DNA from: Alphaproteobacteria bacterium
GTDB taxonomy: Bacteria; Pseudomonadota; Alphaproteobacteria; CAAHEQ01; UBA3637
Direction: 5' to 3'
DNA: 64,000 nt
Assembly (NCBI GenBank): GCA_045118155.1
Contig: JBGUXS010000078.1
Span: 443 to 64,442 of the forward strand
Shown here: positions 9,537 through 57,226 of the stretch, one piece after another
Layout of the letters: every line of letters begins with the position of its first letter
Position numbering within the stretch: the first letter of the stretch is position 1
Notes under the pieces: model-generated
The model's database searches: none
The model's input: the letters and a program-made list of their open reading frames with translations, nothing else
Told to the model about the DNA's origin: nothing
Translations under genes and position numbers: made by a program

Positions 9537-9565
9537 ATTATACACCTTTTTTTATTAAAAGTCAA
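9537..9565 (-). promoter_or_regulatory. consensus sigma70 promoter: TTGACT (9565-9560), 17 nt, TATAAT (9542-9537), driving the pilin-like/OMP genes
   Basis: Minus-strand sequence aaaaatacTTGACTtttaataaaaaaaggtgTATAATagg, followed by RBS agggggtaatgccacATG. Confidence 0.6.
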
Positions 9566-9662
9566 GTATTTTTAAAAAATCCCCCCTCAATTCTCATTCA
9601 ATCACTTTCTGCTTGAGTTTTTTTAGAAAAGAACTATCCTTCAGGACAGGAAGAGGTGCTTT

Positions 9663-10118
9663 ATGTCATATATTACACGAACGCTTGGGGAAGACGAAAA
9701 AGTTCAAGTTGTCGCTAAATTACATTGGATTTGCTATGTTTATCCGACCCTACTTCTTTGCTTATGTTTATTCTGTGGTTTACTGGGATTAGGGGCTAAT
9801 CCTGTTTTCTTACTAATCAGCTTTCTGATTGGGCTTTTGGCTTTTTACCATTTTTTAAATTTAAACGCCATAGAAATGGTTGTCACCAACAGACGGGTTG
9901 TCTGTCGCAAGGGTATTATTGGGATTAAAACTTGGGAACTAAAAAACAATAAGGTAGAATCCATAGAAGTCAAGCAATCTCTAAAAGGGCGTATTCTAGG
10001 TTATGCAACCTTATGGTTTTCTGGCACAGGCACTTCCAAGGTGTGCTTTCAAAACATTAAAAATCCTTGGTCCCTAAAGAAAAAAATAGATTTGATCATT
10101 GGGAAAGACGAAGATTGA
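9663..10118 (+). CDS. bacterial PH-domain (bPH_2, YdbS-like) membrane protein
   Basis: Two TM helices, then NRRVVCRKGIIGIKTWEL...SIEVKQSLKGRILGYATLWF, typical of DUF304/bPH_2. Confidence 0.65.
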   Translation: MSYITRTLGEDEKVQVVAKLHWICYVYPTLLLCLCLFCGLLGLGANPVFLLISFLIGLLAFYHFLNLNAIEMVVTNRRVVCRKGIIGIKTWELKNNKVESIEVKQSLKGRILGYATLWFSGTGTSKVCFQNIKNPWSLKKKIDLIIGKDED

Positions 10119-10150
10119 AAAATGGGCTTGAAAACCAAGCCCATTTTTTG
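10119..10150. terminator. bidirectional rho-independent terminator between the PH-domain gene (+) and rpsI (-)
   Basis: aaaATGGGCTTGaaaacCAAGCCCATtttttt: 9-bp stem, 5-nt loop, with an A-tract on the 5' side and a T-tract on the 3' side. Confidence 0.6.
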
Positions 10151-10163
10151 ATAACCCCAATTT

Positions 10164-10652
10164 TTAACGTTTGGAGAATTGGAACCGTTTTCTGGCCTTG
10201 GAGAACCCAGGCTTTTTCCGTTCCACCACCCGAGAATCCCGTGTTAAGAAACCGGCCCGTTTTAATAAGGTATGAAGTTCTGGTTCAAATAAATCCAAGC
10301 ATTTACTGATCCCATGACGCAAAGCATAAGCTTGCCCAGACAAACCACCACCACAAACGGTACATTGGACATCAAATTCACCAGCCCGGTTCGTAACCAT
10401 AAATGGTTGATTGATAATCATTTGCAACACTGGGCGTGGGAAATATTCAGCCATTTTCCGATCATTAACCGTGATAGTTCCTTTCCCCGGTTTAATTATC
10501 ACGCGGGCAATAGCATTTTTCTTTTTACCCGTGGCCTGAGAACGTCCCAAAGCGTCTTTCTTAGGTTGTCTTTTCGGTGCTTGTTCAGCCGCCGCCGGTG
10601 CTTCTGTCACCGTCTTTAAATCTTGCATTGATGTTACTGTTTCTTTTGTCAT
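10164..10652 (-). CDS. rpsI: 30S ribosomal protein S9
   Basis: C-terminus ...[18 protein letters not shown]. The N-terminal extension may be over-called. Confidence 0.9.
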
Positions 10653-11128
10653 TAAGCACCTCTTTTATTCTTCGGATTTTTAGAAGCAATATCCAACGGG
10701 GTCGGATTTTGCGCCTGATGCGTATGTTCTGCCCCAGCAAAAACACGTAATTTCGTCATTTGTTTTGCCCCTAATGGGTTCCGAGAAATCATGCGTTTTA
10801 CCGCCCGAAATAAAACCTCTTCAGGATGCTTTTCAAACATTTCTTTGATGGTTGTTTCTTTCAATCCACCCAAGTATCCTGAATAGTTATAATACATTTT
10901 TTCTGCCATTTTTTTGCCGGTCAATTTGACCTTAGCCGCATTAATGACCACCACATAGTCCCCGCAATCCTGACTAGGGGTATAACATGGTTTATTCTTC
11001 CCCCGTAAAATTGTGGCAATCTGACTGGCCAAACGCCCTAACACAACACCGTCGGCATCCACCAAATACCATTTGACATCACAATCCGCCGGTTTAAGGG
11101 TTTTCGTTGTTTTTGTTAATGTTGTCAT
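10652..11128 (-). CDS. rplM: 50S ribosomal protein L13
   Basis: [26 protein letters not shown]... Confidence 0.92.
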
Positions 11129-11157
11129 TTGTCATCCTTTTTAAATAATACGTTTTT

Positions 11158-11185
11158 ATTTTAACGTATTTTTTACGAAAGTCAA
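11158..11185 (-). promoter_or_regulatory. putative rplM-rpsI promoter: TTGACT (11185-11180), 16 nt, TAAAAT (11163-11158)
   Basis: Same aaaatacTTGACTtt context as the other promoters in the window. Confidence 0.45.
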
Positions 11186-11203
11186 GTATTTTTTATGTTT
11201 TTT

Positions 11204-11227
11204 GGTGCGGTAATATTATACCGCACC
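11204..11227. other. perfect 24-nt palindrome / 10-bp stem hairpin GGTGCGGTAATATTATACCGCACC in the pnp-rplM spacer
   Basis: Perfect inverted repeat flanked by TTTTTT on the 5' side and AAAAA on the 3' side (plus sense). These flanks are the reverse of a canonical terminator. Confidence 0.5.
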
Positions 11228-11235
11228 AAAAATAC

Positions 11236-13428
11236 TTAATCTTCTTTATTTTCTAGCTTTTGTTCTTCAGTTTTTTCGGATTTATGCTCTTTTTCAGGTT
11301 TTTCTGCCTTTTCCGGCACAGGAATTTCTTCCCCTGTTTCCTGATTAACACACTTCATACTCAAACGAATTTTGCCTTTTTCAAGCCCCATGAATTTGAC
11401 CTTAACACGATCACCTTCTTTTAGAACATCAGTAACTTGTTTTACACGATGTTGGGCAATTTCAGAAATATGTACCAATCCGTCTTGCTTGCCACAGAAG
11501 TTCACAAAAGCCCCAAAATCCATGATTTTCACAACGGTTCCATCATAAATTTGACCAATTTCAGGTTCTGCCACAATATTTTTAATCATGGCTAAAGCTT
11601 TCTGGGCAGATTCTTCAGATAAAGAAGCAATTTGAATCACCCCATTATCATCAATATCAATTTTAGCCCCAGATTGTTCCACAATATCCCGAATCGTTTT
11701 ACCCCCAGATCCAATCACATCTTTAATTTTATCTTTGGCAATTTGGATTAAGGTAAGGCGTGGAGCATGAGCGCTAATTTCTGTCCGAGGTCCCTGCAAT
11801 GTTTCAGCAATTTTTCCCAAGATGAATAACCGCCCTTCTTTAGCTTGTTTTAAGGCTTTTTCCATAATTTCACGTGTAATGGATGTAATTTTAATATCCA
11901 TTTGCAAAGCGGTTACCCCATCGGCAGTTCCAGCCACTTTAAAATCCATATCCCCTAGGTGATCTTCATCCCCCATAATATCGGATAGGATAACAAAGTT
12001 ATCGGCTTCTTTCACAAGCCCCATTGCAATCCCCGCGACTGGCTTTTTCAAAGGGACCCCAGCATCCATTAATGCCAATGTTCCCCCACAAACCGTCGCC
12101 ATAGAAGAAGAACCGTTAGATTCCATAATATCTGAAACTACCCGAATGGAATAAGGGAATTCTTCCTTACTAGGCAACATCGGGTGCAATGCCCGCCAAG
12201 CCAATTTTCCGTGACCGATTTCACGACGTCCCGGACTACCAAGGCGACCAACTTCCCCCACAGAATACGGTGGAAAGTTATAGTGGAGTAAGAAACTTTC
12301 CTTATATTCCCCAGATAGGCAATCCACCACTTGTTCATCATCCGCAGTCCCCAACGTTGCTGTCACTAACGCTTGAGTTTCCCCACGCGTGAATAAAGCC
12401 GATCCATGCGCCCGACTTAACAATCCAACTTCGCTTTCAATCGGCCGAATAGTTTTTGTATCCCGCCCATCAATACGAATCCCCGTGTTTAAAACCGCTT
12501 CCCGCATAACTTTGGATTCCAAAGAATGGAAAATTTGATCACACATGTAAGGTTCCACATCTGGATTGTCGGCAAATAAACCTTGAGCCTTTTCCCGTAA
12601 TTCCGCAAGTTTATCAAGTCTAACCAATTTTTCGTGAATTTGGTAAGCCGCGGCAATATCTGCCCGCAATTCTTTTTCCAATGTTTGTTCCACTAAATCA
12701 AAAGAAGCTGGCTTTTCTGGAACTTCCCAAGCATCTTTAGCACATTCTTCAGCAAGTTCAATAATCATTTTGATAACGGGCTTTAATTGTTCATGCCCAA
12801 AATAAACCGCTTGCAACATGACATCTTCTGGTAATTCTTGTGCTTCGGATTCAACCATTAACACCCCTTCAAGGGTTCCGGCTACAACCAAATCCAACGC
12901 GGATTTTTCAAGATCTTTTGGACTAGGATTTAAGACATAATTTCCATCAATATACCCAACACGTGCCCCCGCGATAGGTCCTAAAAAAGGCAAGCCGGAT
13001 AACGTCAAGGCCGCGGATGACGCAATCATTGCCACAATATCAGCTTGCGTTTCTTTTTCAAAGTTAATTAATGTCGCGGTTACTTGTGTTTCGTTGTTAA
13101 AACCTTTTACAAACAAAGGCCGAATAGGCCGATCAATTAACCGTGATGTTAAAATTTCGTATTCACTAGGCTTTCCTTCCCGTTTGAAAAAGCCCCCAGG
13201 GAAACGCCCCGCCGCATATGTTTTTTCCTGATAATTCACCGTTAGCGGAATAAAATCTTCAAATTTTTCTGGTGGAACCTTACTGGCACATACGGCTGCA
13301 TGTACCATTGTTTCCCCGTATTTTACAATAACGGAACCATCTGCCTGACGTCCAATCTTACCTGTTTCAATACTTAAGGTTTTGTCTCCCCATTGAATTT
13401 CTTTACGATAAATTTTAAATAATGACAT
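11236..13428 (-). CDS. pnp: polynucleotide phosphorylase
   Basis: RNase PH domains, KH and S1 domains. K/E-rich C-terminal extension ([25 protein letters not shown]). Confidence 0.95.
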
Positions 13429-13485
13429 ATTTTCTCTTTCCTTCCAATAAAAAGGGCCTTTACCCTTGCAAAGGCCCTGACAAAC

Positions 13486-13755
13486 TTACTTGCGCAAACC
13501 TAAGCGCCGTAAAATATCTTCATACCTCTTCACTTCTTTCTTTTTCAGGTATGTAAGCAGTGACCGTCGTTCTGCCACCATTTTCAACAATCCACGCCGT
13601 GAATGGAAATCCTTAGCATGTGTTTTCATGTGTTCTGATAAGTCCTTAATCCGTTCGGTTAAAATAGCAATTTGAACCTCTGGTGAACCGGTATCAGTTG
13701 GTGACAAAGCAAATTCTTTGATCAACTGTTGTTTTTTTTCTTTACTTAACGACAT
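13486..13755 (-). CDS. rpsO: 30S ribosomal protein S15
   Basis: 89 aa, ...[23 protein letters not shown]... Confidence 0.92.
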
Positions 13756-14668
13756 CCTCTATCCTTTCTATTTGTTCAATTAACATTCGTTTTGGCTTCA
13801 AGATGTATCCATCCCAAAAGGCCAACACCACACTTTGATTCTGCCAAGTCACAAGAACCATTCCCTTTTTTTCTGGGAGAAGTCCCTGCTTTACACGCAA
13901 TGCCTGTCCTTGGCACAACCGCCTTGCTTCTTCTTCCGAAACGGCCAGAACCAAGATGTCGTCCAGTACGGTCGCAATCGGTTTCAATAACAAGACTCTG
14001 GCATTATACTCTAGTTTTTCAATAAAATCAAGTGAAATCTCTTCCTTTGCCGTAAAGCACCCACAAGAGGTCCGACATAATTTTGAAATTGTGCCACAAC
14101 TCCCTAAGGCCAAGGCCAAATCTCGTCCCAAAGAACGAACATATGTCCCTTTGGAACAACGTACAGAAAAACTAGCTTCATGCCCCGCTTTTTTTAATAA
14201 TTTCAATTCATAAATCTGAATTTCCCTAGAGGCCAATTCAACCTTTTCCCCATTGCGGGCCAAAGCATAGGCCCGCTTTCCCCCTACTTTAAGGGCACTA
14301 TATACGGGGGGAACTTGACGAATTTTCCCTAAAAACTTGGGTAAAATTGCCCTAATTTCCTTTGCCGTTGGAATATAGGTACTTTGGGAAATAACTTCCC
14401 CTTCCAAATCATCGGTAGTGGTCTGTACCCCAAAACGAATGGTAAAATCATAGGCTTTTTCCCCATCCATCACATAAGGAATTAATTTTGTTGCTTTTCC
14501 AAATGCAATCGGCAGCACCCCTGTTGCCAGTGGGTCCAAAGTCCCTGTATGCCCTATTTTAGCAGGATGATAAAGGCGTTTCAAACGCCCAACCACCTGT
14601 GCAGACGTCAAACCCGCTGGTTTATCAATAACCAACCATCCAGATAAAAAATTAATTTCCTTAGGCAT
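13742..14668 (-). CDS. truB: tRNA pseudouridine(55) synthase
   Basis: [17 protein letters not shown]...[16 protein letters not shown]. Confidence 0.92.
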
Positions 14669-15059
14669 GGGCCACCAATGAACGTACCCGTTCTACCATA
14701 GAAAAAAAACCATTCCGACGCGTGGGGGATAAATGATCTTCTAGACCTAAATCCTTAAAAATCCGTTCTATATCCAATTCCCGAATAAAAGCAGCTGTTT
14801 GCCCATTAATTAGGGAAAGTAAAATAGCCTCTAACCCCCGTACAATAAAGGCATCGCTATCGGCAACAAAAAAGAACTTATCCCCTTTTTGCTGAACAGT
14901 AATCCACACTTGTGATTGGCATCCTTGGACCTTATGGGCTTCTGTTTTATCTTCTTCTGGCATCGGGGGTAAACTCTGTCCTAATTCAATTAGGTATTGG
15001 TATTTTTCTTCCCAATCCGTAAATAAAGAAAAATTATCAATTAATTCCTGTTCTGTCAT
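14661..15059 (-). CDS. sufE: SufE-like cysteine desulfuration (sulfur acceptor) protein
   Basis: VQGCQSQVWI active-site Cys motif. 132 aa. Confidence 0.8.
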   Translation of the reverse strand: MTEQELIDNFSLFTDWEEKYQYLIELGQSLPPMPEEDKTEAHKVQGCQSQVWITVQQKGDKFFFVADSDAFIVRGLEAILLSLINGQTAAFIRELDIERIFKDLGLEDHLSPTRRNGFFSMVERVRSLVAHA

Positions 15060-16462
15060 TCAATGTTTTTTAATCCTTCTAGTGTTAATTTTACCTTTAT
15101 TATATCAACACTGCGATTTTTTTCATCAAAAATACGCTTATCCTCTTGTAAAAAAGGACGTAAGTCTTTTAATAATCCAGCATCTTCAGTAGCTTGACAC
15201 GCTGAATTTTGTAAAAATTCTTTTTCTTGAGGGGTTGTTTGAACCGCCACATTTTGTAAATAGGTTTGCATCAAAGTACATTGTTCTTCATCAATCGGTT
15301 TGGCTGGGGGAGAAATAGCATCAAAATTCCGAATAAGAAATTCAATATCTCCAACGGGTTTTTCCTTTTCAATCTGTCCTGTAAAATGCACATCTATAAC
15401 CGCTTGTACACTTTCCAAACTTCCTTTAACATCCAAATCAGCCCCTTTTAGCAGCCCCCAAGAAAAATCTTTAGAAAGCAATTGTTCTACTAATATTTCA
15501 CGATCAAACTTTTTGGCTTTGATAACTAATTTTCCCTTTTCTGGGATAAACCCTTTGGTCGGGACATTCCCTATACACGCGAATGTTAGGTTAATTTCAG
15601 CTTCCTCCCCCTTAAATTCTACTTGCCCTTCTACCTGCGTTAAAATAATCTTTCTGGGGTAAACGGGAAATACTAAATCCGCCTGTGGTATTTCAAATTC
15701 AATTTTTCCTGTATCCGCCAATAACCATGCATTATGTAAAATAGGGGCTAATCCCTGAAACCGTGCTTTTTCCGTTAAAGAAGCCACCGTCCCTTGCACT
15801 TCTTTCCCCGTAAATGTCAACCCCAAAAGGGAGGCTTTTTGTTCAATAACGGGAACATGCCCCAAAAAAGAAAACATATATTTGCCGTTTGCTTCATCCA
15901 CTTTCAATTGCCATTCGGGGCGCGTCAGGTGTACATGGCTAGCACTCCACCGATCTTCGGCAATCAAATCCCAATACGGGTGCCATTTAAATTCATTTTG
16001 CCACTTTTCAACATAGAAAAAATTGGGTTCAAATACCGCGGTTGCAAAACCTTCTAGTTGTTCTTTTGGGGGAAAGTGTCCCCGATATAACGTCGTCCCT
16101 TCTAATTGCCCATCTGGGGTCAATAATACCCCTTGTGTAGGGAAAGTCATTTCATCCGGTGTTTCTTTAAGTGGCATCCAAACGGTCAGAACTTTTTTCT
16201 TCAAGTCTAAATCATTCTTCACAGATGCTTCTGGCAATATTAAACTTGCTTGATCGGCTCGTTGTTGCAAAACAGCCCCCGAAATCCCCAATGCCTTTAA
16301 CTTCGCCCTTAGGGCCTTAGCCAAAGTATCATGATCCGGTCGTGTCAACACAGTGGATGGGGTTACGTAAGACATAGCATTAGGGAAAAAACGCGTTAAC
16401 ACCGCGCCTTGCAAAGCAACTGCCCCTACAAGAGCCAGACGTCCCAATAATTTTGCTAACAT
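15056..16462 (-). CDS. hypothetical secreted/periplasmic protein, 468 aa
   Basis: N-terminal signal-like MLAKLLGRLALVGAVALQGAV. No recognised motifs. Overlaps the sufE start by 4 nt. Confidence 0.55.
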   Translation of the reverse strand: MLAKLLGRLALVGAVALQGAVLTRFFPNAMSYVTPSTVLTRPDHDTLAKALRAKLKALGISGAVLQQRADQASLILPEASVKNDLDLKKKVLTVWMPLKETPDEMTFPTQGVLLTPDGQLEGTTLYRGHFPPKEQLEGFATAVFEPNFFYVEKWQNEFKWHPYWDLIAEDRWSASHVHLTRPEWQLKVDEANGKYMFSFLGHVPVIEQKASLLGLTFTGKEVQGTVASLTEKARFQGLAPILHNAWLLADTGKIEFEIPQADLVFPVYPRKIILTQVEGQVEFKGEEAEINLTFACIGNVPTKGFIPEKGKLVIKAKKFDREILVEQLLSKDFSWGLLKGADLDVKGSLESVQAVIDVHFTGQIEKEKPVGDIEFLIRNFDAISPPAKPIDEEQCTLMQTYLQNVAVQTTPQEKEFLQNSACQATEDAGLLKDLRPFLQEDKRIFDEKNRSVDIIKVKLTLEGLKNIE

Positions 16463-16552
16463 ATTACAGTCTCCATCTTAAGCCTACAAGTATTTATGTA
16501 AAATCACAAGTTTTTTCTTTTATTTTTACATAAAGGGTATAAACTTTTCATC

Positions 16553-17224
16553 ATGACATGGGAACTAAAAGAATTTGATGTCGTACTTAGCACAAATGAA
16601 ACAGCTTGCGACTATCCACCGTTTACAGTTGTTATTGCAGGACGACAACTTAAAGGGCGTGGCCGAATGGGACGTGTTTGGCAAAGTCCATTGGGTAATT
16701 TATATGCCAGCTTCGTTTTCCCTAAAACGCAAACGCCTCCTGCTTTTTTATCATTTTTACTAGGGGTTTCTGTTGTTCAAACCTTGCACAAACCTGTTGC
16801 CTTAAAATGGCCAAATGATATTTTGCTCAATGGGAAAAAATGTGGGGGAATTTTATTAGAACAAGAAGACGATAAAATTATTGCTGGTTTAGGTTTAAAT
16901 CTTAGCTCTTGCCCTAAAAGCGGAGTTATGTATCCTGTGACACATCTAGGATATCGGGGAACCCCCGCTCTTTTTACAAAACGTCTATTAAAAAGCATTG
17001 AAAAAAATTATGAACTTTTAGAAACAAAGGGCTTTCCCTATCTTCGGGAAATATGGCTATCGCACGCTTATGGGCTAAAAGGTCCTGTCAAAGCTGTCTT
17101 GCCCAACAAAGAATTAACAGGCATTTTTTACGATTTAACCCCAAATGGGGAACTTGTTCTTATTACCCCAGATAACAAGAAACATCTTATTTCTTGTGGG
17201 GATATCTTTTTTAAGAAACCTTAA
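16553..17224 (+). CDS. birA: biotin-[acetyl-CoA-carboxylase] ligase (group I, no HTH domain)
   Basis: QLKGRGRMGRVWQSPLGNLYASFVF. Confidence 0.85.
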   Translation: MTWELKEFDVVLSTNETACDYPPFTVVIAGRQLKGRGRMGRVWQSPLGNLYASFVFPKTQTPPAFLSFLLGVSVVQTLHKPVALKWPNDILLNGKKCGGILLEQEDDKIIAGLGLNLSSCPKSGVMYPVTHLGYRGTPALFTKRLLKSIEKNYELLETKGFPYLREIWLSHAYGLKGPVKAVLPNKELTGIFYDLTPNGELVLITPDNKKHLISCGDIFFKKP

Positions 17225-17249
17225 CTTATCACTTTTACGTTCGCATACG

Positions 17250-17285
17250 CTCACCGAACTCCCTCAACGTGAGTTCTCATCTTCT
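17250..17285 (+). terminator. possible weak terminator hairpin after birA (GAACTCcctcaacgtGAGTTC followed by a T-rich stretch)
   Basis: 6-bp stem. The 12-nt right arm is also complementary to part of the adjacent tRNA-Ser. Confidence 0.3.
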
Positions 17286-17303
17286 TTAATATTTACCTTG
17301 AAA

Positions 17304-17393
17304 TGGCGGATGGAGTGAGATTCGAACTCACGTTGGGCGTAAACCCAAACACACTTTCCAGGCGTGCGCCTTCAACCACTCGGCCATCCATCC
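17304..17393 (-). tRNA. tRNA-Ser (anticodon GGA), 90 nt, long variable arm, encoded CCA
   Basis: Cloverleaf read by eye from the reverse complement: acceptor GGATGGA/TCCATCC, D-arm GCCGAGTGGTTGAAGGC, anticodon loop CTGGAAA, long variable arm, T-arm GTGAGTTCGAATCTCAC, 3' GCCA. Confidence 0.85.
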
Positions 17394-17444
17394 ACATTGT
17401 TTATTAAAGCATATTTTTACTCAAAAATCAAGAGATATATTTTC

Positions 17445-18818
17445 CTATCCCCCAAGAGCTTTATAGATATGAATTAAATCCTGATATAAGGCATGGGTTG
17501 CCTGCACAAGTTCTCTTTGGCCAGCAATTAAATTCTGAAAAGCCGTGAGTACTTCAGAAAATGAAATCAACCCCCCAGTATATTTATCATATGTCAACTG
17601 ATAAACTTGTTGTAAATGGCTTAAACTTTGGTGCCTTAAATCATGAGTTTTTAAATCTTGATCTAACTCAACATAGGCATTTTTCACTTCATGAACCGCC
17701 GTCAGTAAAGCCTTTTCATAAGCAAGCAATTTTTCTTCCTTCATTTCTTTTTGAAGGATAATATTCTGTCGTAATACGCCCCAGTGAAACAACGGGGTAC
17801 TTACCCCAGGAAGTAGATGATATGTATAACTTTTATGATTAAGCAAAGAACTGACTTTATTATCTTGAAATCCCAAAAAAGTAGATAAATTGACTTTTGG
17901 GAAAAGCTCAGCAACAGCCATCCCAACAGCCGCATTTTGCCCAATTAATTCTTCTTCGGCGACACGGACATCTGGCCGATTCCGAAGCAATGAAACGCTA
18001 GCATCATACACCCGATTAACATCAAACAAAAACGGCTCTAAAATAATATTATGGGAACTTGCCAACTCTTTATTAAGCGTATTTGGTAAGTTCCCCAATA
18101 ATAAAGCAAGCGTATTTTTCTCTACCTGTTCTTGGGCTTTTAAGCCAGGTAATGCCGCCTTTGTTTCTGCTAACAAATATTTGGCTTGTTCTAATTCTAA
18201 TTTCGTTTCCAAGCCACTTTGATATTTCTTTTGAACCAAGTGTAACAAATCTTCTTGTGTCTTTATATTGCGCTGTAATAGGGATATCTGAGCTTGGACC
18301 ATACGTAATGACATATAAGCTAACGCTAATTGTGCCTGCACAGAAACAAAGACATTTTTTAATGCTTCTTGGGCCCCACGATAACTACTTTCTGCTTGCT
18401 CTGTCTGGCGACGTCCTCCGCCAAAGATATCTAATTCCCAATTGACATCAAAACCAACTTGATAATAATCTTCCTTAAGCAACATTGGCATAGATTTAGG
18501 CTCTTTTACATAGGTATACCCCGCTTCAATATCCACCATCGGTAAATTCTGCACGGATGTCTTTTTTAAAAAAGCACGTGCTTGTCTTAACCGCATAAGC
18601 GCTTGCCCAATATCTAGATTTTGTTCAGCTGTTTTAGTAAGCATACGGGTTAAAGGGGCTTCGTGAAAATCACTTAAATGAAAAGGTGCGTGAACCTGTT
18701 TGTTTTGAGATAAACCTAAAATTTGAGCCACTTCTTTATCTTCAAAAAAGATGGGACGTTGATAATCCGGTCCAACCGTGCACGAAACCAACACAAAAAA
18801 AAGAATAATTTTTTTCAT
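17445..18818 (-). CDS. RND efflux outer-membrane factor lipoprotein (NodT/OprM family)
   Basis: Lipobox LVSC. TolC-family repeats. Last gene of the operon. Confidence 0.85.
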   Translation of the reverse strand: MKKIILFFVLVSCTVGPDYQRPIFFEDKEVAQILGLSQNKQVHAPFHLSDFHEAPLTRMLTKTAEQNLDIGQALMRLRQARAFLKKTSVQNLPMVDIEAGYTYVKEPKSMPMLLKEDYYQVGFDVNWELDIFGGGRRQTEQAESSYRGAQEALKNVFVSVQAQLALAYMSLRMVQAQISLLQRNIKTQEDLLHLVQKKYQSGLETKLELEQAKYLLAETKAALPGLKAQEQVEKNTLALLLGNLPNTLNKELASSHNIILEPFLFDVNRVYDASVSLLRNRPDVRVAEEELIGQNAAVGMAVAELFPKVNLSTFLGFQDNKVSSLLNHKSYTYHLLPGVSTPLFHWGVLRQNIILQKEMKEEKLLAYEKALLTAVHEVKNAYVELDQDLKTHDLRHQSLSHLQQVYQLTYDKYTGGLISFSEVLTAFQNLIAGQRELVQATHALYQDLIHIYKALGG

Positions 18819-21800
18819 ATCTTTTTCCTTTTCCGGCGTATTTTAGGAACCGGAACCTTAAAATAACAGTGACGGCCAATCCCTTCACAAATACCATATA
18901 AGGCCGGAATAAATAAAATCCCAATACATGTAGCCGCTAACATCCCCGCGAATACCGTAACCCCAATGGATATCTGGCTGGAAGCCCCTGCCCCCGTGGC
19001 AAGCAACATAGGGACAACCCCTAAAATAAATGTTAAAGCCGTCATTAATACGGCACGAAAGCGTTCTTTTGCCCCATAAATACAGGATTGAACCAACGAT
19101 TGTCCTTGTCCACGGGCTTGTAAAATAAATTCCACAATTAAAATCGCATTTTTACTAGCAAGACCAATGAGTAATACTAACCCTAGCTGAGCATAAATAC
19201 TTAAAGGAAGGCCCCAAATCATGAGGCCTATCAAGGCCCCTAATAAAGCAAAAACATTTGAAAAAATGACCGAAAATGCCGTTAACCAACTTTCATATAA
19301 CCCAACCAAAAACAAATATCCAAAAATAATTGCCAACACAATTAAAATAAGAACCAAGCCCGATGTTTTAACCTCTTGTAAGCTCAATCCTGTCCAAGCT
19401 AACGCATACTTTGGTCCTAAGTCGTTCACCATTTTTTGCACCTGTTGAATTCCTTGCCCAGAACTCACCTCTTGTTTTGTAGCCGCTGTCACTGGAGCAC
19501 TTAAATACTGGTTAAACCGATACACAATCTTAGGGCTGAGTATGGTTTTGAACTCTATCAAATTTTTAAGGCGCACCATATTTCCACCCAAACTTGGAAC
19601 ATATAAATTTTCAATATTATTTTGATCTTGACGATAGGGGAAAGCCGCTTGTACAATCACTTTGTTAACTTGCCCTTGAACAGGAATATTATTAACATAT
19701 TGAGACCCTAAATTCGCTTGTAATACAGAAAAAATATTAGAAATTGGGACATGATAATTCAACGCTTTTGTACGATCAATTTCCAAAAATAAATGGGGAC
19801 TTCCAGGGGTTAATGTACTAAATCCAAACACAAAATTAGGGCTTTTTCGTATTTTTTGTATAACAGATTGCGTAGATATAAATAATTTTTCAAAAGAAAC
19901 ATCTTCATCTATAGCATTAATTTGAAAAGAAAGGCCATCACTTGTTCCAACGCCAGGAATAGATGGTAAGGCATAAAATTCTATAGATGCTTGCGTATTA
20001 TGCGTATAATTTTCCTGTAAACCATTTAAAATATGTGCTAAAGAAAGTGTTTTTGTTGTTCGTTGTTCCCATGGTTTTAACCCCACTACCCCCATCGCAA
20101 TATTTTCCCCTTGTCCCCCTAAAAAACTAACCCCAACAACAGAAATAAAATAACGAACCCCAGGTAAAGCCAGTATTTTTTGAGATAATTTTTCTAAGAC
20201 CGCTTCTGTCCTATTCCGGCTGGCTGTTTCGGGTAATTGAATATTCGCAAAAATGACCCCCTGATCTTCCTGGGGGATAAAGGAAGTTGGCCTGATAAAA
20301 AACAAGAAAAAAGTTCCAATTAAGGTACAACTAATTAAAAAAGAACTTGTTTTTAGGTGTTCACAAAAAAACCGTACCGCAGATATATATCGCTTTTTTG
20401 TCCACTCTAACATTTCATTAAAAAAATCAAAGATCTTTAAAGGATTCTTACTCTGCCGTCCCAAAAATAAAGCACATAAAGCGGGACTTAACGTCAAGGC
20501 ATTGACCGATGAAAATACAACCGCTGTCGCAATTGTAATTGCAAATTGCTGGTAAATTTTCCCCGTAATCCCCGCCATTAACCCAACAGGAACAAAAATA
20601 GATAACAAGACAAGCGTCGTTGCTATTACCACAGTACTAATATCTTTCATTGCTTGTATAGATGCCTCTTTTGCGGGCAATTTCCTATTTGCCATTAGGT
20701 ATTGCACCCGTTCTACCACAACAATAGCATCATCCACAACCAAACCGATAGCTAAAATAAGGGCAAATAAAGTTAAGATATTAATATCAAATCCTAAGAC
20801 ATAAATAACTGCAAACGTACTGATTAATGATACAGGAATTGTTATCATTGGAATAAATGTCGCAAAGATATTTTGTAAAAAAAGATATACAACCCCAACC
20901 ACCAACAAAAAAGTAATTAATAATGTTTCAATAATCCCTTTTAACGATGCCCGCACAAAATCAGTAGAATCATATACAACTTCTAATTCCAATCCCTCTG
21001 GGAAATGATACGTCAAGGTTTTAATTTCTTGGCGTACTGCCTGCATCGTCTGCAAGGAATTTGTCCCAGGTGTCTGGCTTAAAGCCATAATAACTGCTGG
21101 CTGATTATTAAACAAAGAAGTCATTTGATAGGTATCCGCCCCCCAAGAAACTTCTGCCACATCTTTCAACCTAACAATTCCCCCTTTAGTATCCACAGCA
21201 ACCACAATTTCTTCAAAATCAGAAACACTTTTTAAAAATCCCTTTGCGCTTAAGGTTAAAACAAAAGCATTTGTCACAGGACTTGGGGCTGCCCCCAAAG
21301 ATCCAACACTAGCTTGAACATTCTGATTTTCAATTGCCTGAATAATATCTTGAGAACTTAATCCTAAAGCATTTAACTTCATAGGATTTATCCAAACACG
21401 AATACTATGTTGTGGGCCATAAACTGTTACATCCCCAACCCCATGTACCCGAGATAGTGGATTTTTTAAATAGGTATATGCATAATTACTTAAAAACAAA
21501 TCCGAATAAGAGTTATTTTTCCCTTTTAAAACAAGCATCCCTAGCATATTTGCTGATTGTAATTTTACTTCTATCCCTTCTTGACGAACTATAGGGGGCA
21601 GAATAGGTTCTACCTGTTGTAACCGATTTTGTACTTTAACCTGAGCTATATCAGGGTCGGTCCCAATATTAAAAGTAATGGTCAATTGATAAACACCATT
21701 ATCATTTGAAGTAGAAGACATATATAACATATCTTCAACCCCATTAATTTCATTTTCAATTGGAATAGCCACTGTCTCTGTTAGAATTTGAGCATTTGCA

Positions 21801-24011: not shown

Positions 24012-24035
24012 GAGATACTACATAAACTTTAGTAT

Positions 24036-24069
24036 AAAAAAAGGGGGGAATAATTGCTTCCCCCTTTTC
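24036..24069 (-). terminator. rho-independent terminator after rne (GGGGGGAAtaattgcTTCCCCC; minus sense followed by T7)
   Basis: 7-bp GC-rich stem with a U-tract. The A-tract on the other side makes it potentially bidirectional. Confidence 0.6.
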
Positions 24070-24086
24070 AATAATAATTCTTCAAT

Positions 24087-29874: not shown

Positions 29875-29980
29875 TTTTTCTTCCTAAACTTGAGCTTTCA
29901 GTATAAAGGATATCCTTGAAAAAACAACTTGTTTTTTTGGGAAAAATCTTGCATACTCCTTTCAATAGGAGGAATCACAC

Positions 29981-34897: not shown

Positions 34898-35056
34898 ATA
34901 GTCTTTCCTTTCTTAAAAATTACTAAATATAGTTGTTTTACTCCTTTTTTTCTTTTTCTAGTCAACCGTTTTTCTCCCCCAAAGTCAATAGCTATTTTAA
35001 AAATAAAACAACTTTTTTTTAAACTCATTGAAAAATAGAAATATTTTTTAATGAAT

Positions 35057-38126: not shown

Positions 38127-38140
38127 TTGTATTTTTATCC

Positions 38141-42898: not shown

Positions 42899-43050
42899 TT
42901 TCAATCCTTTTCCTGTTTTGCGGATTTTCGCAGATTTACACGCCCTTGTCAAATATTTTTTATCCTTAAAAAGAAATGCCATTTTTTTTAAAAAAACTGT
43001 TGTCTTTTTACGAAAAGAAGTATATGAATGGTTTAATACTAGAAACATGA

Positions 43051-44112
<1,062 letters not shown>

Positions 44113-44120
44113 GAGGGTTC

Positions 44121-51611: not shown

Positions 51612-51614
51612 GAT

Positions 51615-53096
51615 TTATCCTTTCACCCGATGCGGGATTAATGGCATTTCTGCCCCATTTTCTAGCGCTTGTGCTACCTGGAAAACCGTTGTTTCATCAA
51701 AATGTCGTCCTATAACTTGAAGTCCTATCGGCAATCCATTTTTTCCAAACCCAACAGGAACCGCAACACTAGGTACCCCAGCCAACGAAGACGGTGTTGT
51801 AAAAACATCAGCTAAATACGCATCCAACGCACTCATATTTTTCATTTCCTGTTCAGAAATCGCCGTCGTTGGGGATGTTGGTACTAACAAAGCATCCACT
51901 TTATTATACACATCCATAAAGTCATTATAAATCAAACGACGCACCTTTTGTGCCCGCGTATAATAGGCATCATAGAATCCCGCAGATAACACAAAAGTTC
52001 CCAAGAAAATACGGCGTTGTACTTCTTCACCAAACCCTAAAGAACGTGTTTTTGTATAAAGTTCATCCAGTGTTTTTCCTGTTTCCCGAATGGTATAACG
52101 CACCCCATCATACCGGGCTAAATTAGAAGAAGCTTCGGCGGGACTAATAATATAATAAACCGGCAAAGCATATTGCGTATGGGGCAAACTAACATCCAAA
52201 ATTTCCGCCCCAGCCTCTTTCAAAATCCGAACCCCTTTATCCCAAACAGAGGCGACATCTGGGTTAAGCCCCTCTAACCGATATTCCTTTGGGATCCCAA
52301 TTTTCAACCCTTTAATCCCTTTTTTGCAAAGGGCCGCAAAATCTGGAACCAACTGGTTCGCTGAGGTAGAATCTTTGGCATCATATCCCGCCATATTTTG
52401 AAGCATCAAAGCCCCATCTTCCACGGAACGCGCCAAGACCCCCGCTTGATCCAAAGAAGAAGCATACGCCACAATTCCCCATCTAGAACACCGCCCATAA
52501 GTCGGTTTTACCCCAACAATACCACAAAAGCTAGCTGGTTGCCGGGAAGATCCCCCTGTATCTGTACCGGTTGCCGCCATACAAAGGCCCCCGGCCACTG
52601 CCGCAGCTGGTCCCCCAGATGATCCCCCAGGAACAAGGGTGTAATTTCCGTTTTCATCCGTCCACGGATTCTTGGTTAAGCCAAAATAACTGGTAATTGT
52701 AGAAACCCCCATTGCGAATTCATCGGTATTAACTTTTCCCAAAACAACGGTTCCGGCTTTTTGCAATTTTTCAGAAACTGTGGATTCATAAGGGGGAATA
52801 AATTCGCTTAAAATCCTAGAGGCCGCCGTTGTCCGAACCCCTTTTGTACAAAACACATCTTTATGTGCGATAGGGATTCCTTCCAACGCCCCGGCTTGTC
52901 CTTTTGCCCGGCGCGCATCACTTTCTTCCGCTTGTTTTAATGCCAATTCTGGGGTTTGTGTAATAAACGCATTTAAGGTTTTATCTGCCCGTTCCATTTC
53001 CGCAATATAGGCCTTGGTTAATTCCACAGAAGAAATTTCTTTTTTATCTAAAAGATCTAAAGCTTGGGCAACACGTAAATCTATCAAATCCGTCAT
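51615..53096 (-). CDS. gatA: Asp/Glu-tRNA(Asn/Gln) amidotransferase subunit A
   Basis: Amidase signature GGSSGGPAAAVA. Confidence 0.95.
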   Translation of the reverse strand: MTDLIDLRVAQALDLLDKKEISSVELTKAYIAEMERADKTLNAFITQTPELALKQAEESDARRAKGQAGALEGIPIAHKDVFCTKGVRTTAASRILSEFIPPYESTVSEKLQKAGTVVLGKVNTDEFAMGVSTITSYFGLTKNPWTDENGNYTLVPGGSSGGPAAAVAGGLCMAATGTDTGGSSRQPASFCGIVGVKPTYGRCSRWGIVAYASSLDQAGVLARSVEDGALMLQNMAGYDAKDSTSANQLVPDFAALCKKGIKGLKIGIPKEYRLEGLNPDVASVWDKGVRILKEAGAEILDVSLPHTQYALPVYYIISPAEASSNLARYDGVRYTIRETGKTLDELYTKTRSLGFGEEVQRRIFLGTFVLSAGFYDAYYTRAQKVRRLIYNDFMDVYNKVDALLVPTSPTTAISEQEMKNMSALDAYLADVFTTPSSLAGVPSVAVPVGFGKNGLPIGLQVIGRHFDETTVFQVAQALENGAEMPLIPHRVKG

Positions 53097-53100
53097 TTTC

Positions 53101-53388
53101 TTACTCCACTACCTTGGGGACAACATAAAATCCATGAACAGCATCAGGGGAATTCGCCATTAATTCTTCCTGTAAATTCCCAGTGGTCACCTCATCCGCC
53201 CGTTGGACATTTTTTTCTTCTGCGACACTGTAAAGTGGCTCAATCCCATCAACATTGACCTGTTGCAACTGCTCCACCCACTTTAAAATATCTTCCATTT
53301 CGTGAATAAATTTTTCCTGTTTTTCTTCTGGGATATTAAGCCGCGCCAGCTGTGCAATCCCTTTTACCGTTTTTGTATCAAAATGCAT
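53101..53388 (-). CDS. gatC: Asp/Glu-tRNA(Asn/Gln) amidotransferase subunit C
   Basis: 95 aa. Conserved gatCAB order. Confidence 0.85.
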   Translation of the reverse strand: MHFDTKTVKGIAQLARLNIPEEKQEKFIHEMEDILKWVEQLQQVNVDGIEPLYSVAEEKNVQRADEVTTGNLQEELMANSPDAVHGFYVVPKVVE

Positions 53389-53412
53389 TAAATGCCCCTC
53401 CTAGAAGTCTTT

Positions 53413-53441
53413 TTTATACATTTTTTCCGTTTAAAAGTCAA
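53413..53441 (-). promoter_or_regulatory. gatCAB promoter: TTGACT (53441-53436), 17 nt, TATAAA (53418-53413)
   Basis: Minus-strand sequence aaaaaaacTTGACTtttaaacggaaaaaatgTATAAAaaagacttctAGGAGGGGcatttaATG. Confidence 0.55.
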
Positions 53442-53517
53442 GTTTTTTTCATAAAAGCATTTTCTGCCTTTACTTTTCATCTCTTTTTGATTATGCTTGT
53501 TTCTACAAGGGGGTAAT

Positions 53518-53805
53518 ATGCGGGAACCTATTTTAAAAGCGGTCAGTATGCCGGCGCGTATTTTATGGGCGCCGTCGGTTCCGGCGTTGTTAAACATGGT
53601 TTGTCAATTACCTTTCATGTTGTTCTATGCGGGACAAGGGGGCAACCCTTTGCTATTCATGGGAACTATCATCGGGGTTCATGCCTTAATTGCTCTTTAT
53701 GCCGCGAAAGAACCTCATTTATCTAATATGTTCAAAGCCCAAGGTCCTTTCTTTAAGAAAAGTTCACAAATGTATACCTCATCAGGAAGAAAATACGCCC
53801 CATGA
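53518..53805 (+). CDS. virB3: type IV secretion system protein VirB3 (TrbD-like)
   Basis: Two TM helices. ILKAVSMPARILWAPSVPALLNMV...LLFMGTIIGVHALIALYAAKEPHL matches the VirB3 family. RBS AAGGGGG. ATGA overlap with virB4. Confidence 0.75.
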   Translation: MREPILKAVSMPARILWAPSVPALLNMVCQLPFMLFYAGQGGNPLLFMGTIIGVHALIALYAAKEPHLSNMFKAQGPFFKKSSQMYTSSGRKYAP

Positions 53806-56237
53806 ATCAAACAGATGTTTTCGCCCTTATTTTACAAAATGCTTCCTCTACGGGGTTACTTATTGCCTTGTTAGGAGTATTAGCACTTGTTTTTGTCATG
53901 GTTGTATTTGTGACCTCCTTAGGAAATATGTTACTTCCCAAACCAAAAGAAACCCTTGTTTCTGATTTTCTTCCTTTTTCAAGGCTAGACCCAGATGGTG
54001 CCACCATTTACATGCGTAATGGTACTTTGGCTCGTGTTTTTGAATTAACAGGAACGGATACCACTTTAGCAAGTGATATTGAACGTAAAGCCTTAATGGA
54101 AAAACGGCAACAATGGATTGATTCACTAAGTGAATTAGAAATTATTTGCAGGGTTATTACGATTCGTGAAAAAATTCCTTTAGCCGAAGAAACACTACAT
54201 CCAGATAATCCTTTGCTCAATAAAGTGTCAGAACTTTGGTTGAACAGTTTACACCGTATTTTCAGAAACAAACATTACCTAATTCTTTCCGTTAATGATC
54301 GTAAGGATGCCATTAATGATTTAATTCAGGCAACAAATGCGACTCTTTCTATTTTAGATGTTTATCATCCTATTCTTATTTCTGAAAAAACCCCAGATAA
54401 ACATCAAGACAAAAGCCCCTTTTGGGTTTTTTCACAACTTGTCAGCCCCGTATCAAACCCCAAACCCATTGTAGGCTTTGAAAAAGGGGAAGAACTTAAT
54501 TCCTTTTTAACGTCTGACTATATCCACTTCACAAAAGATGAAGGGATTATCCGTTTCTTTTCTGGGGATAGGGAAAAATTAGCCATTTGTATCGGTATTC
54601 GTAAGCCTGGGGATTTCATGGATGAACAAATGGTTGCCCGTATTTTAGGAATTGATTGTGAAGTTGTTATTACACACAATATCCATGCTATTCCAAAAGC
54701 AAAAGGAAACCTGTTAATGATTCAACAACGCCGTATGGCTTACTTAACAAGTTTTTCTGAAAGTGTACGTTCCCAATATAATACCGCCATGCAATTAATG
54801 GATCCTTCTGATATTAATTCACAAACCCTTAATGAATATTCTATGTCTATTATGGTTTATGGGGAATCTAAGGAAGAACTTGTTTTTGGACAACAGGAAG
54901 TTGAAAAAATATGCCGACTTTACGGGGTGACCCCTGTGCGAGAAGGTTGGATTACTCAAGCTGTTTTCTTTTCTCAAATTCCCTCTTATGAAGTATATCC
55001 ACGTACATACTTGTATTTATCGCGGGTAGTGGCGTGTTCCATTTGCATGGATAAAACAACTGAAGGCCGGCAAAAATCTGATTGGGGGCCTGTGCCTATT
55101 TCTTACTTCCGGACTATTACGGGGACCCCTTACGCTTTCCAATTTCATGTAACAGAAGAACCCTATGCTGTGGCACATACAGCCCTTATTGGTCCAACGG
55201 GACAAGGGAAAACAACCTTATTTTCATTTTTAGCAGGCCAATCTTCCCGTATTCCAGATTTACGGACTTATTTCTTTGACCGTAACAATGGGGCCAAAGT
55301 TTTTGCTTTATTACAAGGGGCTCCTTATGTGCGGTTTGATGGGGGGGACAATGCTGTTGCCTTAAATCCTTTCTTTATGCCAGATTCCCCTGAAAACAGG
55401 GCATTTTTACGATCTTGGTTACGCTCTATTACTGGCTGTACAGATGCTTTTTCCGAAGAAGAAATTGCCCGAGCCGTTACAACAGCTTATGACTATTTAA
55501 AACCAGAAGAACGTCTTTTGAAGAACTTGTATAAAAGCTCTTTTTCCTTAAACGGAGATATGCGCCGTGAACTAAAACGTTGGGTCAGTGATGATCAATA
55601 TGGTCGGATCTTTAATGCCGAAGAAGATAAATTAGATATTGATAACCGCTATACTGGTTTTGATTTTACGCATATTTTCCAAGATGGGACGTTGGCTCCT
55701 GCTGTCATCAGTTATATCATGTACCGCATTCATGAATTAGCTAGTTTAAAAGGGACCCCCTCGTTAGTGATGATTGATGAAACGGCCCCTATGTTAGAAC
55801 ATCCTATGTTCCGAGACAATTTCATTGTAGGCCTTCGGGAAGGACGAAAGAAACGACAAGCATTCTTATGTGCTTTCCAGCAACCTCGCTTTTTAGATGA
55901 AAACGGTTTAGGGGATGTGATTCGTGGCCAATGTCAAACCATTATTTTCTTTAGAAATTTACAGGCAACCCCCGCGGATTATGAATCTTGGAATTTAACC
56001 CCAAGTGAACTAAACTTTATTCTAGGAAAAGAATTTATTGATCATAAATACGCCATCCTTGTCAAACGGCCCGCTGTTAATGAATCTGTTATCTTAGATA
56101 TTAATTTGGGGGGATTAGGTCCCTACTTAAAAATTTATTCTTCTGGGAATAAAAATGTGGCCTTAGTTGAACGTCTTAGTCATGAACTAAAATATGCTAA
56201 AGATATCCTACAACAATATCTACAGTTATCTGATTAG
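53802..56237 (+). CDS. virB4: type IV secretion system ATPase VirB4 (TrbE-like), 811 aa
   Basis: Walker A LIGPTGQGKTT. Walker B SLVMIDETAPML. N-terminal TM helix. CagE/TrbE/VirB4 architecture. Confidence 0.88.
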   Translation: MNQTDVFALILQNASSTGLLIALLGVLALVFVMVVFVTSLGNMLLPKPKETLVSDFLPFSRLDPDGATIYMRNGTLARVFELTGTDTTLASDIERKALMEKRQQWIDSLSELEIICRVITIREKIPLAEETLHPDNPLLNKVSELWLNSLHRIFRNKHYLILSVNDRKDAINDLIQATNATLSILDVYHPILISEKTPDKHQDKSPFWVFSQLVSPVSNPKPIVGFEKGEELNSFLTSDYIHFTKDEGIIRFFSGDREKLAICIGIRKPGDFMDEQMVARILGIDCEVVITHNIHAIPKAKGNLLMIQQRRMAYLTSFSESVRSQYNTAMQLMDPSDINSQTLNEYSMSIMVYGESKEELVFGQQEVEKICRLYGVTPVREGWITQAVFFSQIPSYEVYPRTYLYLSRVVACSICMDKTTEGRQKSDWGPVPISYFRTITGTPYAFQFHVTEEPYAVAHTALIGPTGQGKTTLFSFLAGQSSRIPDLRTYFFDRNNGAKVFALLQGAPYVRFDGGDNAVALNPFFMPDSPENRAFLRSWLRSITGCTDAFSEEEIARAVTTAYDYLKPEERLLKNLYKSSFSLNGDMRRELKRWVSDDQYGRIFNAEEDKLDIDNRYTGFDFTHIFQDGTLAPAVISYIMYRIHELASLKGTPSLVMIDETAPMLEHPMFRDNFIVGLREGRKKRQAFLCAFQQPRFLDENGLGDVIRGQCQTIIFFRNLQATPADYESWNLTPSELNFILGKEFIDHKYAILVKRPAVNESVILDINLGGLGPYLKIYSSGNKNVALVERLSHELKYAKDILQQYLQLSD

Positions 56238-56617
56238 CATTCAATAACAACAAACGCCATAGCTTGTTTATCATCACTCAAAGAAATATGTAGATAACTA
56301 TTGGGGTAAGATTCTAAAAGTGTTTGTCGCGCTTTTTCAGAAAGCTTGATAATGGGCTTTCCATTATCCGTGTTTAAAATACTAATGTCTTGCCAAGAAA
56401 GCTTCATTCCAATTCCAACCCCTAAGGCCTTTGCAACCGCTTCTTTTCCTGCAAATCTTTTAGCATAAAATCTAACTTGCCTAGTATAAGATAACTCTTC
56501 TGCATACTGTCTTTCTTCGGGGGTAAATAAACGATGCAGCACTTTGTTTCCAAAGCGCTGCATTAAAAATTGCATTCGTTCTATTTCTAAGATATCTGTG
56601 CCGATACCTAAAATCAT
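56234..56617 (-). CDS. acpS: holo-[acyl-carrier-protein] synthase
   Basis: MILGIGTDILEIERM... 4'-phosphopantetheinyl transferase. Confidence 0.88.
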   Translation of the reverse strand: MILGIGTDILEIERMQFLMQRFGNKVLHRLFTPEERQYAEELSYTRQVRFYAKRFAGKEAVAKALGVGIGMKLSWQDISILNTDNGKPIIKLSEKARQTLLESYPNSYLHISLSDDKQAMAFVVIEC

Positions 56618-56625
56618 TGGGGTAT

Positions 56626-56976
56626 TTAAACCTCGTCCACAACTTGAAAGGAACCCGTTTCTGCAAGTTCCTCATCTGAATAAATGGCATCCCCCATCAA
56701 TTCGGCATCCACAGCTTTCAATTCTTCTGCATCGGCTACACTTTCTTTAACCGGGGTATAGCGTTGTAATTTATCCACCATTGTTTCGCGCACCGCATCC
56801 AAATCCACAGCCCCTTGTTCAATTTCACGTAAGGCTATCACTGTATTCTTATCACCATCTTTTTCAACGGTTGGGGCAACCCCTAATCCCAAAGATTTCG
56901 CCCGGCCAACCGCCAAAACGACCAATTCAAATCTGTTAGGAACTTTTTTAACACATTCTTGAATACAAGCGTCCAT
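56626..56976 (-). CDS. rpoZ: DNA-directed RNA polymerase subunit omega
   Basis: VPNRFELVVLAVGRAKSL. Confidence 0.85.
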   Translation of the reverse strand: MDACIQECVKKVPNRFELVVLAVGRAKSLGLGVAPTVEKDGDKNTVIALREIEQGAVDLDAVRETMVDKLQRYTPVKESVADAEELKAVDAELMGDAIYSDEELAETGSFQVVDEV

Positions 56977-56996
56977 ATGTATCCTCCGCCTAAAAG

Positions 56997-57161
56997 TTAT
57001 TTGACCTTCTTTTCTACAAATTCGACGTGTTTTCTGGCCTTACGGTCATATTTACGAACTTTCATTTTTTCGGTTTTACGTGAACTTTTTTTCGTAACGT
57101 AAAACACACCTGTTCCAGCCGTACTTTCAAGTTTAATTTCAATTGTTGTTGGTTTTGCCAT
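56997..57161 (-). CDS. rpmG: 50S ribosomal protein L33 (not in the ORF track, 54 aa)
   Basis: Hand translation of the reverse complement: [54 protein letters not shown], which matches the L33 consensus. Confidence 0.85.
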
Positions 57162-57197
57162 ACTCTATACCCTTCCTTAAACATAAAATCTCTTGTT

Positions 57198-57226
57198 ATC
57201 ATACTTAAAATTTTCTTAAAAGTCAA
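57198..57226 (-). promoter_or_regulatory. rpmG-rpoZ-acpS promoter: TTGACT (57226-57221), 17 nt, TATGAT (57203-57198)
   Basis: Minus-strand sequence ttttttcTTGACTtttaagaaaattttaagTATGATaac. Confidence 0.5.

Follow-up and report, generated by a model that had tools for sequence, protein, structure and literature searches.

The window analysed here is a stretch of 64,000 nucleotides from contig JBGUXS010000078.1 of an Alphaproteobacteria bacterium (NCBI GenBank assembly GCA_045118155.1; genome 39% G+C), and the feature under study is a recurrent promoter motif, the hexamer TTGACT with shared flanking bases, that stands upstream of five genes or operons. Matches to Pfam and NCBIfam profiles identify the downstream genes as those of ribosomal proteins L13 and S9 (rplM-rpsI), GatC (gatCAB), and L33 (56997-57161), RpoZ and AcpS (rpmG-rpoZ-acpS). 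These labels, like that of NrdD elsewhere in the window, agree with those of an earlier note on this DNA. The two other sites precede an open reading frame (ORF) of 603 amino acids (aa), with genes for RbfA and an outer membrane protein (OMP) beta-barrel downstream of it, and an ORF that starts at 63443. The 603-aa ORF had been called pilin-like, a label based on a sub-threshold match to ComGG (E=0.0026) and a G-x4-E N-terminus.

The 10-mer ACTTGACTTT occurs in exact form four times in the window, where 0.15 copies are expected, and none of 100 dinucleotide-preserving shuffles reaches four, so that the recurrence claimed in the earlier note is real. Its list of four sites needs adjustment: three are exact (-35 hexamers at 9560, 11180 and 53436), and the copy upstream of rpmG (57219-57228, minus strand) is TCTTGACTTT, with one mismatch. 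The copy before ORF 63443, described as weaker, is in fact exact; the weak part there is the -10 element, which reads TACTCT with a spacer of 16 nt or TATACT with a spacer of 14 nt. The 9-mer core CTTGACTTT is present five times (0.77 expected; 0/100 shuffles reach five). The ~2.2 kb (3.5%) of non-coding DNA contains all five copies and the ~61.8 kb of coding DNA none; each copy is oriented toward the next gene, with the -35 element 53-65 nt from the start codon. TTGACT alone, with 7 non-coding and 22 coding occurrences, is 8.8-fold denser in non-coding DNA. Looser searches of the window carry no such signal: the count of 10-mers with one mismatch is not significant (10 versus 6.0 expected, reached in 8/100 shuffles), and a generic promoter scan is uninformative (51 matches versus 48.3 in shuffles).

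At all five sites the -35 hexamer is TTGACT, which matches TTGACA in five of six positions. The hexamer coordinates given previously for the four operons are correct, as are their spacers (17, 16, 17 and 17 nt) and -10 elements (TATAAT, TAAAAT, TATAAA and TATGAT). Four sites thus have a -10 of the sigma-70 type, that of gatC with A at -7, and the ORF 63443 site has a poor one. The promoter of the 603-aa operon matches in 11 of 12 hexamer positions, the best score in positions 1-20000.

Around the hexamer, C stands at -36 in all five sites and A at -37 in four; TT at -29/-28 is found in all five and T at -27 in four. The spacer also contains an A-tract from about -23 to -17, with A in three to four of the five sites at most positions, a feature absent from the earlier list. 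The flanks that were on that list hold in part. The upstream A-run is present in three of the five sites, the rpmG site having a T-run and the ORF 63443 site none; TTTTAA follows the hexamer in three, and one more has an extra T. Tracts of A5-A7 or T7 end at -38 or -39 in four of the five sites, with none at 63389, and their meaning is weakened by the AT-rich background. A distal UP-element subsite is not clear at 9565, where a G7 run extends from -55 to -49, nor at 63389. An extended -10 promoter was also considered and rejected: none of the five sites has TGn (T at -15, G at -14), and at 9565 and 53441 a TG abuts the hexamer instead (-14/-13). Beyond about -37 to -25 the five sites have pairwise identities of 0.28-0.49, versus 0.28 expected for random AT-rich DNA.

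Conservation at orthologous promoters and information in the flanks

The relatives used for comparison are metagenome-assembled genomes of uncultured Alphaproteobacteria from animal gut, the closest of which by L13 are ~70% identical. The contig index contains no gene whose product is exactly that of either of two ORFs near the ends of the window (601-1188 and 63443-63808). Closer contigs were found through VirB4 (L161, 95%; L162/L163, 81%; L164/L165, 73%), and a metagenome scan with GatA gave only two close loci (L081 and L082, 70%). This sampling is limited in size and favours the loci that served as queries.

The strongest conservation is seen upstream of gatC. Across six genomes, with GatA or VirB4 70-95% identical, CTTGACTTTT and four spacer A's are invariant, among them the C of position -36 and the T's from -29 to -27. 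The -10 is variable (TATAAA, ATAAAA, CATTTT, TACTTT, TATACT), and the rest of the region has diverged. In the window, virB3-virB4 (PF03135; 53518-56237) is divergent from gatC; the block belongs to gatC, because L082 keeps CTTGACTTTT although virB3 is not a neighbour there. Upstream of rplM, TTGAC[AT]-N16-17-TATAAA stands at the same place in 30 relatives, and in an alignment of 24 genomes TTGAC and the first -10 bases, T and A, are invariant. The rpmG gene of L161 is preceded by the same CTTGACTTTTAAgaaaattttaag, with TAAAAT as -10, and rpmH shows the same architecture in five relatives, with A7-nn-CTTGACTTTTTTT-N-TATAAA upstream.

The last base of the hexamer is stable at a given gene and does not follow any single functional class. 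It is T in 6/6 promoters of gatC and in 5/5 of rpmH, and A in 28/30 of rplM, where the T-type is found in the window and in its closest relative, L015. The ortholog of the 603-aa gene in L162 has TTGACAaaaa-N-TATAAT.

The promoters of the RNase P RNA gene (rnpB) of the relatives provide a link to transcript ends. The gene is preceded by TTGAC[AT]-N17-TAnnn[TA], and the conserved 5' end of the RNA, GTCAG, starts 7-9 nt past the -10 in 13 relatives; position 1 of Rfam family RF00010 lies 8-9 nt past it in L015 and L019. Bacterial RNase P RNA retains the 5' end of its primary transcript in the mature form; if so here, these ends are a natural proxy for the transcription start site (TSS).

The flanking bases were also assessed in bulk. 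In ~530 kb of sequence from relatives, the ratio of non-coding to coding density rises stepwise from 1.8x for TTGACT to 2.9x for TTGACTT, 4.3x for TTGACTTT and 8.6x for CTTGACTTT. This rise does not stem from base composition, under which an added C ought to reduce the ratio. Position -30 has A in 79% and T in 21% of the 66-71 de-duplicated intergenic promoters from relatives, and C occupies -36 in 35% of them, versus 16% in the background. Where T stands at -30, it is followed by T at -29 in 16/16 promoters and by TT at -29/-28 in 11/16, compared with 49% and 24% in coding controls: TTGACT never stands alone in the sampled relatives and comes as TTGACTT(TT). Upstream, A reaches at least 50% at -44 and -42 and is the commonest base at -45 and -43, with low information content. 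The bases flanking the -35 hexamer thus carry real, if modest, information. A literature search for TTGACTTT returned irrelevant matches only.

In the same promoters, T at -15 has a frequency of 45% and G at -14 of 38%. At -7, T accounts for 58% and A for 24%, and TATAAA is as common as TATAAT; it is nearly universal at rplM, rpmH and rnpB. This frequency hints at a possible activation of the CarD type.

Interpretation of the extended -35 region

We interpret the five sites, with a probability of about 0.85, as the strongest sigma-70-type promoters of the window, served by the housekeeping sigma factor RpoD, with an extended -35 region typical of the lineage. On this reading, the extra shared bases are part of the lineage-typical context and do not form a separate element; the motif is real and conserved in related genomes, yet it is a known kind of signal. 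Of the two readings offered in the earlier note, a shared UP-element/-35 module is supported by the invariance of the flanks at the six gatC promoters and by the stepwise enrichment in relatives.

In the mechanism that we propose, region 4.2 of the sigma factor would contact TTGACT, and region 2 would contact the TATAAT-like hexamer 16-17 bp downstream. The C-terminal domains of the alpha subunits (alpha-CTD) probably sit on the A/T tracts between about -46 and -38, which would correspond to a UP-element-like subsite of the proximal kind. Transcription would start ~7 nt past the -10, giving predicted leaders of 18-30 nt with a Shine-Dalgarno sequence, and the T-tract from -29 to -27 and the spacer A-tract at about -23 to -17 most likely tune the shape or bendability of the DNA between the hexamers. 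The identity of the sigma factor, the contact by alpha-CTD, the TSS positions and the strength of the promoters are what we infer here; the position, orientation and spacing of the sites, their statistical excess, their conservation at orthologous promoters and the RNA 5'-end proxy in relatives are established.

Several observations weigh against this interpretation. The invariance at -36 and from -29 to -27 upstream of gatC exceeds the bases that sigma region 4.2 is known to read, and a reader other than region 4.2 is possible at that promoter. The family-wide promoter set carries little information at the flanks overall; the uniformity of the window sites (5/5) is above this family average and is therefore partly a product of site picking. 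The copy before ORF 63443 has neither a convincing -10 nor an upstream tract, and the sample comprises only about 20 transcription units. One could speculate, and we regard this as unlikely, that the clade selectively maintains two classes of -35 region, TTGACA(a) and, combined with an A-tract in the spacer, C-TTGACT-TTTT. Something beyond sigma region 4.2, either a lineage-specific contact of RNA polymerase or an additional factor, would then recognise the T-class. The promoters that carry it (gatCAB, rpmH, rpmG and, in some lineages, rplM and rnpB) would form a constant set in which the -10 may decay freely.

Less probable still is the other proposal of the earlier note, that the extended motif (C at -36, TTGACT, TTTT) is a transcription factor site overlapping the -35, used by a class II activator or a repressor that coordinates housekeeping or translation genes. 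It would account for flanks kept as tightly as the hexamer at gatC while the -10 drifts, and for T-type -35 regions that stay at the same orthologous promoters; several of the targets are also translation-related. However, inspection of the five sites revealed no dyad or direct-repeat symmetry in ACTTGACTTTTAA, and the motif is exactly a near-consensus sigma-70 -35 element, correctly spaced from a -10. In function the targets are mixed and do not form a single regulon (surface protein, OMP and RbfA; L13-S9; GatCAB; L33, omega and AcpS; an ORF without family), and their orthologs can be preceded by TTGACA in unrelated flanking sequence, as at rplM and the 603-aa gene in relatives. Little speaks for the implied link to translation genes: the motif was not found upstream of rplK, rplJ and rpoB in L164. 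We therefore did not retain a translation-gene regulon, for which these ribosomal operons give no support within a small sample biased toward the query loci.

The -35 boxes of sigma-32 promoters share CTTGA. Promoters of an alternative sigma factor, with a -35 like TTGAC or GAAC followed by T's (sigma-32-like CTTGA or the GGAACTT type of extracytoplasmic function (ECF) sigma factors), might thus be considered, all the more as GGAACTT followed by a T-tract is found at ECF sigma-E promoters (PMC3326320). We nevertheless hold this to be very improbable: the -10 elements are TATAAT-like and not CCCCATNT or CGTC/TCTGA, the spacing is 16-17 nt, and the targets are core housekeeping genes (ribosomal proteins, RNase P RNA, rpmH, gatCAB). 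The notion that only the TTGACT hexamers function, or not even those, and that flank identity reflects chance in AT-rich DNA together with selection by the reader, can draw on the ~67% A+T of the non-coding DNA and on the uninformative scan and one-mismatch count given above. It has been largely refuted, and we give it equally little credence, because C, a rare base (16.6%), stands at -36 in every site, the count of the exact 9-mer is never reached in shuffles, and both the gatC invariance and the stepwise enrichment come from independent genomes. The near-identical cores of 12-13 nt at several loci could also suggest a promoter cassette, duplicated or mobile, that recombination has spread. 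This idea has a negligible probability and was ruled out by the random-level identity of the flanks: similarity stops at the core, and in relatives each copy keeps its place upstream of its own gene.

Taken as RpoD-type promoters, the sites yield the model [A/T tract]-C-TTGAC(T-TTT or A-a)-N17-TAtaAa, which can be used for promoters of poorly sampled, uncultured gut Alphaproteobacteria. The motif fixes the likely starts of several operons, and its value lies mainly in annotation.

Other promoter candidates and neighbouring features

Table 1. Motif sites and promoter candidates in the window. Positions are those of the 64,000-nucleotide stretch; TSS positions are predicted.
Feature	Position	Strand	Upstream tract and -35	Spacer and -10	TSS and start codon
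Promoter of the 603-aa ORF / OMP beta-barrel / rbfA operon	9537..9580	-	T6A5 tract, aC, TTGACT 9560-9565	17 nt (TTTAAT AAAAAAA GGTG), TATAAT 9537-9542	TSS ~9530, ATG 9510
rplM-rpsI promoter	11158..11205	-	two A6 tracts, aC, TTGACT 11180-11185	16 nt, TAAAAT 11158-11163	TSS ~11151, ATG 11128
gatCAB promoter	53413..53452	-	A7 tract, C, TTGACT 53436-53441, then TTTAAA	17 nt with A6, TATAAA 53413-53418	TSS ~53406, ATG 53388
rpmG-rpoZ-acpS promoter	57198..57246	-	T-tracts, tC, TTGACT 57221-57226, then TTTAAG	17 nt, TATGAT 57198-57203	TSS ~57191, rpmG ATG 57161
Promoter candidate upstream of ORF 63443-63808 (121 aa, without family)	63387..63416	+	exact ACTTGACTTT		TSS ~63423, ATG 63443
Exact ACTTGACTTT copy	9558-9567	-			
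Exact ACTTGACTTT copy	11178-11187	-			
Exact ACTTGACTTT copy	53434-53443	-			
Exact ACTTGACTTT copy	63387-63396	+			
tRNA-Ser(GGA) promoter candidate	17403..17432	-	CTTGATTTTT, TTGATT 17426-17431	17 nt, TTTAAT 17403-17408	
nrdD upstream region	34936..34988	-	two TTGACT 23 nt apart	neither with a good -10 (best GTAAAA/TAAAAC)	
cdsA candidate promoter	42924..42952	-	A6-tat-TTGACA (42947-42952)	17 nt, GAAAAT	
mreB candidate promoter	43000..43028	+	T8A7 tract, ctg, TTGTCTTTTT, TTGTCT then TTTT (43000-43009)	17 nt, TATGAA	
virB3 candidate promoter			TTTACT	17 nt, TATGCT	
dnaE candidate promoter			TTGAAA	17 nt, TATACT	

Of the roughly 20 starts of transcription units in the window, those with the five motif sites match the -35 best; A-type (cdsA) or weaker candidates are included in Table 1. 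The gene for tRNA-Ser(GGA) (17304-17393), the sole match in the window to Rfam at gathering thresholds, has its mature 5' end at 17393, 10 nt past the -10 of its CTTGATTTTT-N17-TTTAAT site. The candidate upstream of cdsA lies in genuine intergenic DNA, since the annotated ORF is over-long and its CdsA domain begins only at residue 57. Inside truB, aCTTGATTTT-N17-TATAAT (14003-14032, minus strand) matches in 10/12 positions and is a possible internal promoter for rpsO-pnp. It precedes rpsO by ~250 nt, and the end of truB and the start of rpsO overlap.

The TTGACT pair before nrdD, reported previously, is present at 34983-34988 and 34960-34965, and by its sequence the region is a candidate for a weak or regulated promoter. 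Between the pair and the nrdD start, ACAACTATATTTAGT (34905-34935, minus strand) resembles an NrdR box (consensus acaCwAtATaTwGtgt). The promoter may thus be controlled by a repressor, which would account for its poor -10.

We also observed two palindromes near rplM. GGTA-N6-TACC (consensus GGTATTATAATACC) is invariant upstream of the gene in 26/31 relatives, at a fixed distance of 36 nt before the -35, and is followed there by near-invariant phased A-tracts; across L001-L030 it precedes the rplM -35 by about 50 nt. The window copy (11199-11232; core 11209-11222) is embedded in a 9-bp GC-rich stem flanked by T5 and A6, 23 nt before the -35. The palindrome is found essentially nowhere else in ~600 kb and travels with rplM although the upstream gene differs (pnp in the window, an upp-like gene in L019). 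It is not a canonical terminator, as an A-run follows it, and Rfam contains no known RNA family matching the rplM upstream region; it may be an operator or a curved-DNA module. The second, an inverted repeat AATACGT-N10-ACGTATT (11147-11170, minus strand), brackets the rplM -10 with TAAAAT in its loop and is absent from the rplM promoters of relatives. It may be due to chance or may be a lineage-specific operator.

The gene order around rplM in the window differs from that in all sampled relatives. In most of these, rnpB is encoded on the opposite strand ~0.8 kb upstream of rplM and has a TTGAC[AT]-N17 promoter to itself (L019 8723-9084, L015 8894-9260); the window has pnp where relatives have rnpB. 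The spacer of the rpmG promoter contains TTAA-N7-TTAA, the form of a CtrA box (57205-57219), as does that of L161; with 5 such boxes in the window versus 8.1 expected, it was dismissed as probably due to chance.

Genes of a type IV secretion system (T4SS), including a VirD4 homologue at 3351-5522, are scattered among the housekeeping genes of the window. In L162/L163 the ortholog of the 603-aa ORF and the OMP beta-barrel gene follow directly after virB4 (L162 2208-7507; compare window 6940-9510). Because of this arrangement, gene order suggests that the 603-aa "pilin-like" protein may be a T4SS-associated surface component.

Comparison with known promoter systems

The T-tract after the -35 has a counterpart at promoters of the ECF sigma factor sigma-E, where a T-tract directly after the -35 core (GGAACTT) has been proposed to work by way of DNA rigidity and contacts to the backbone (PMC3326320). 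The position of the tract is alike, but the sigma family, the -35 core and the -10 differ, so the likeness is an analogy only. UP elements, in turn, are A/T tracts with a proximal subsite near -43, where alpha-CTD binds the narrowed minor groove (PMC3326320). The window sites resemble Escherichia coli promoters of the rrnB P1 type in having A/T tracts of 5-8 nt that end 2-3 nt upstream of the -35; they differ in the unclear distal subsite at 9565 and 63389, and the tracts could simply reflect AT-rich intergenic DNA.

Closer parallels exist within the Alphaproteobacteria. In the rrn promoters of Rhodobacter sphaeroides, a UP-like region rich in A+T is found together with TTG at the -35, a spacer T-tract of 7 nt and A at -7 (PMC7703639). 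With rrnA and rrnC (Henry et al., 2020; PMC7703639) the window sites share the AT-rich upstream stretch, TTG, the spacer T-tract and, in some, A at the last -10 position. In contrast, their discriminators are A-rich rather than G+C-rich, and among the five only gatC has A at -7. The T-tract of R. sphaeroides lowers basal activity (PMC7703639), whereas T-tracts of the window type are conserved, a comparison drawn from a set of promoters other than those of rRNA. The frequencies at -7 in the relatives of the window fit the alphaproteobacterial relaxation of T at -7 that has been reported (PMC7703639).

The sigma-70 consensus of Sinorhizobium meliloti is CTTGAC-N17-CTATAT (PMC2573895). It resembles the window sites in the C 5' of TTGAC, the 17-nt spacer and the combination of a strong -35 with a looser -10. 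The -10 elements in the window, however, are AT-rich and TATAAT- or TATAAA-like rather than CTATAT, and T at -30 with the T run that follows is found in all five sites. The T-tract after the -35, together with the strong -35 and loose -10 at gatC, offers comparative support for the known picture of alphaproteobacterial promoters, which it leaves unchanged.

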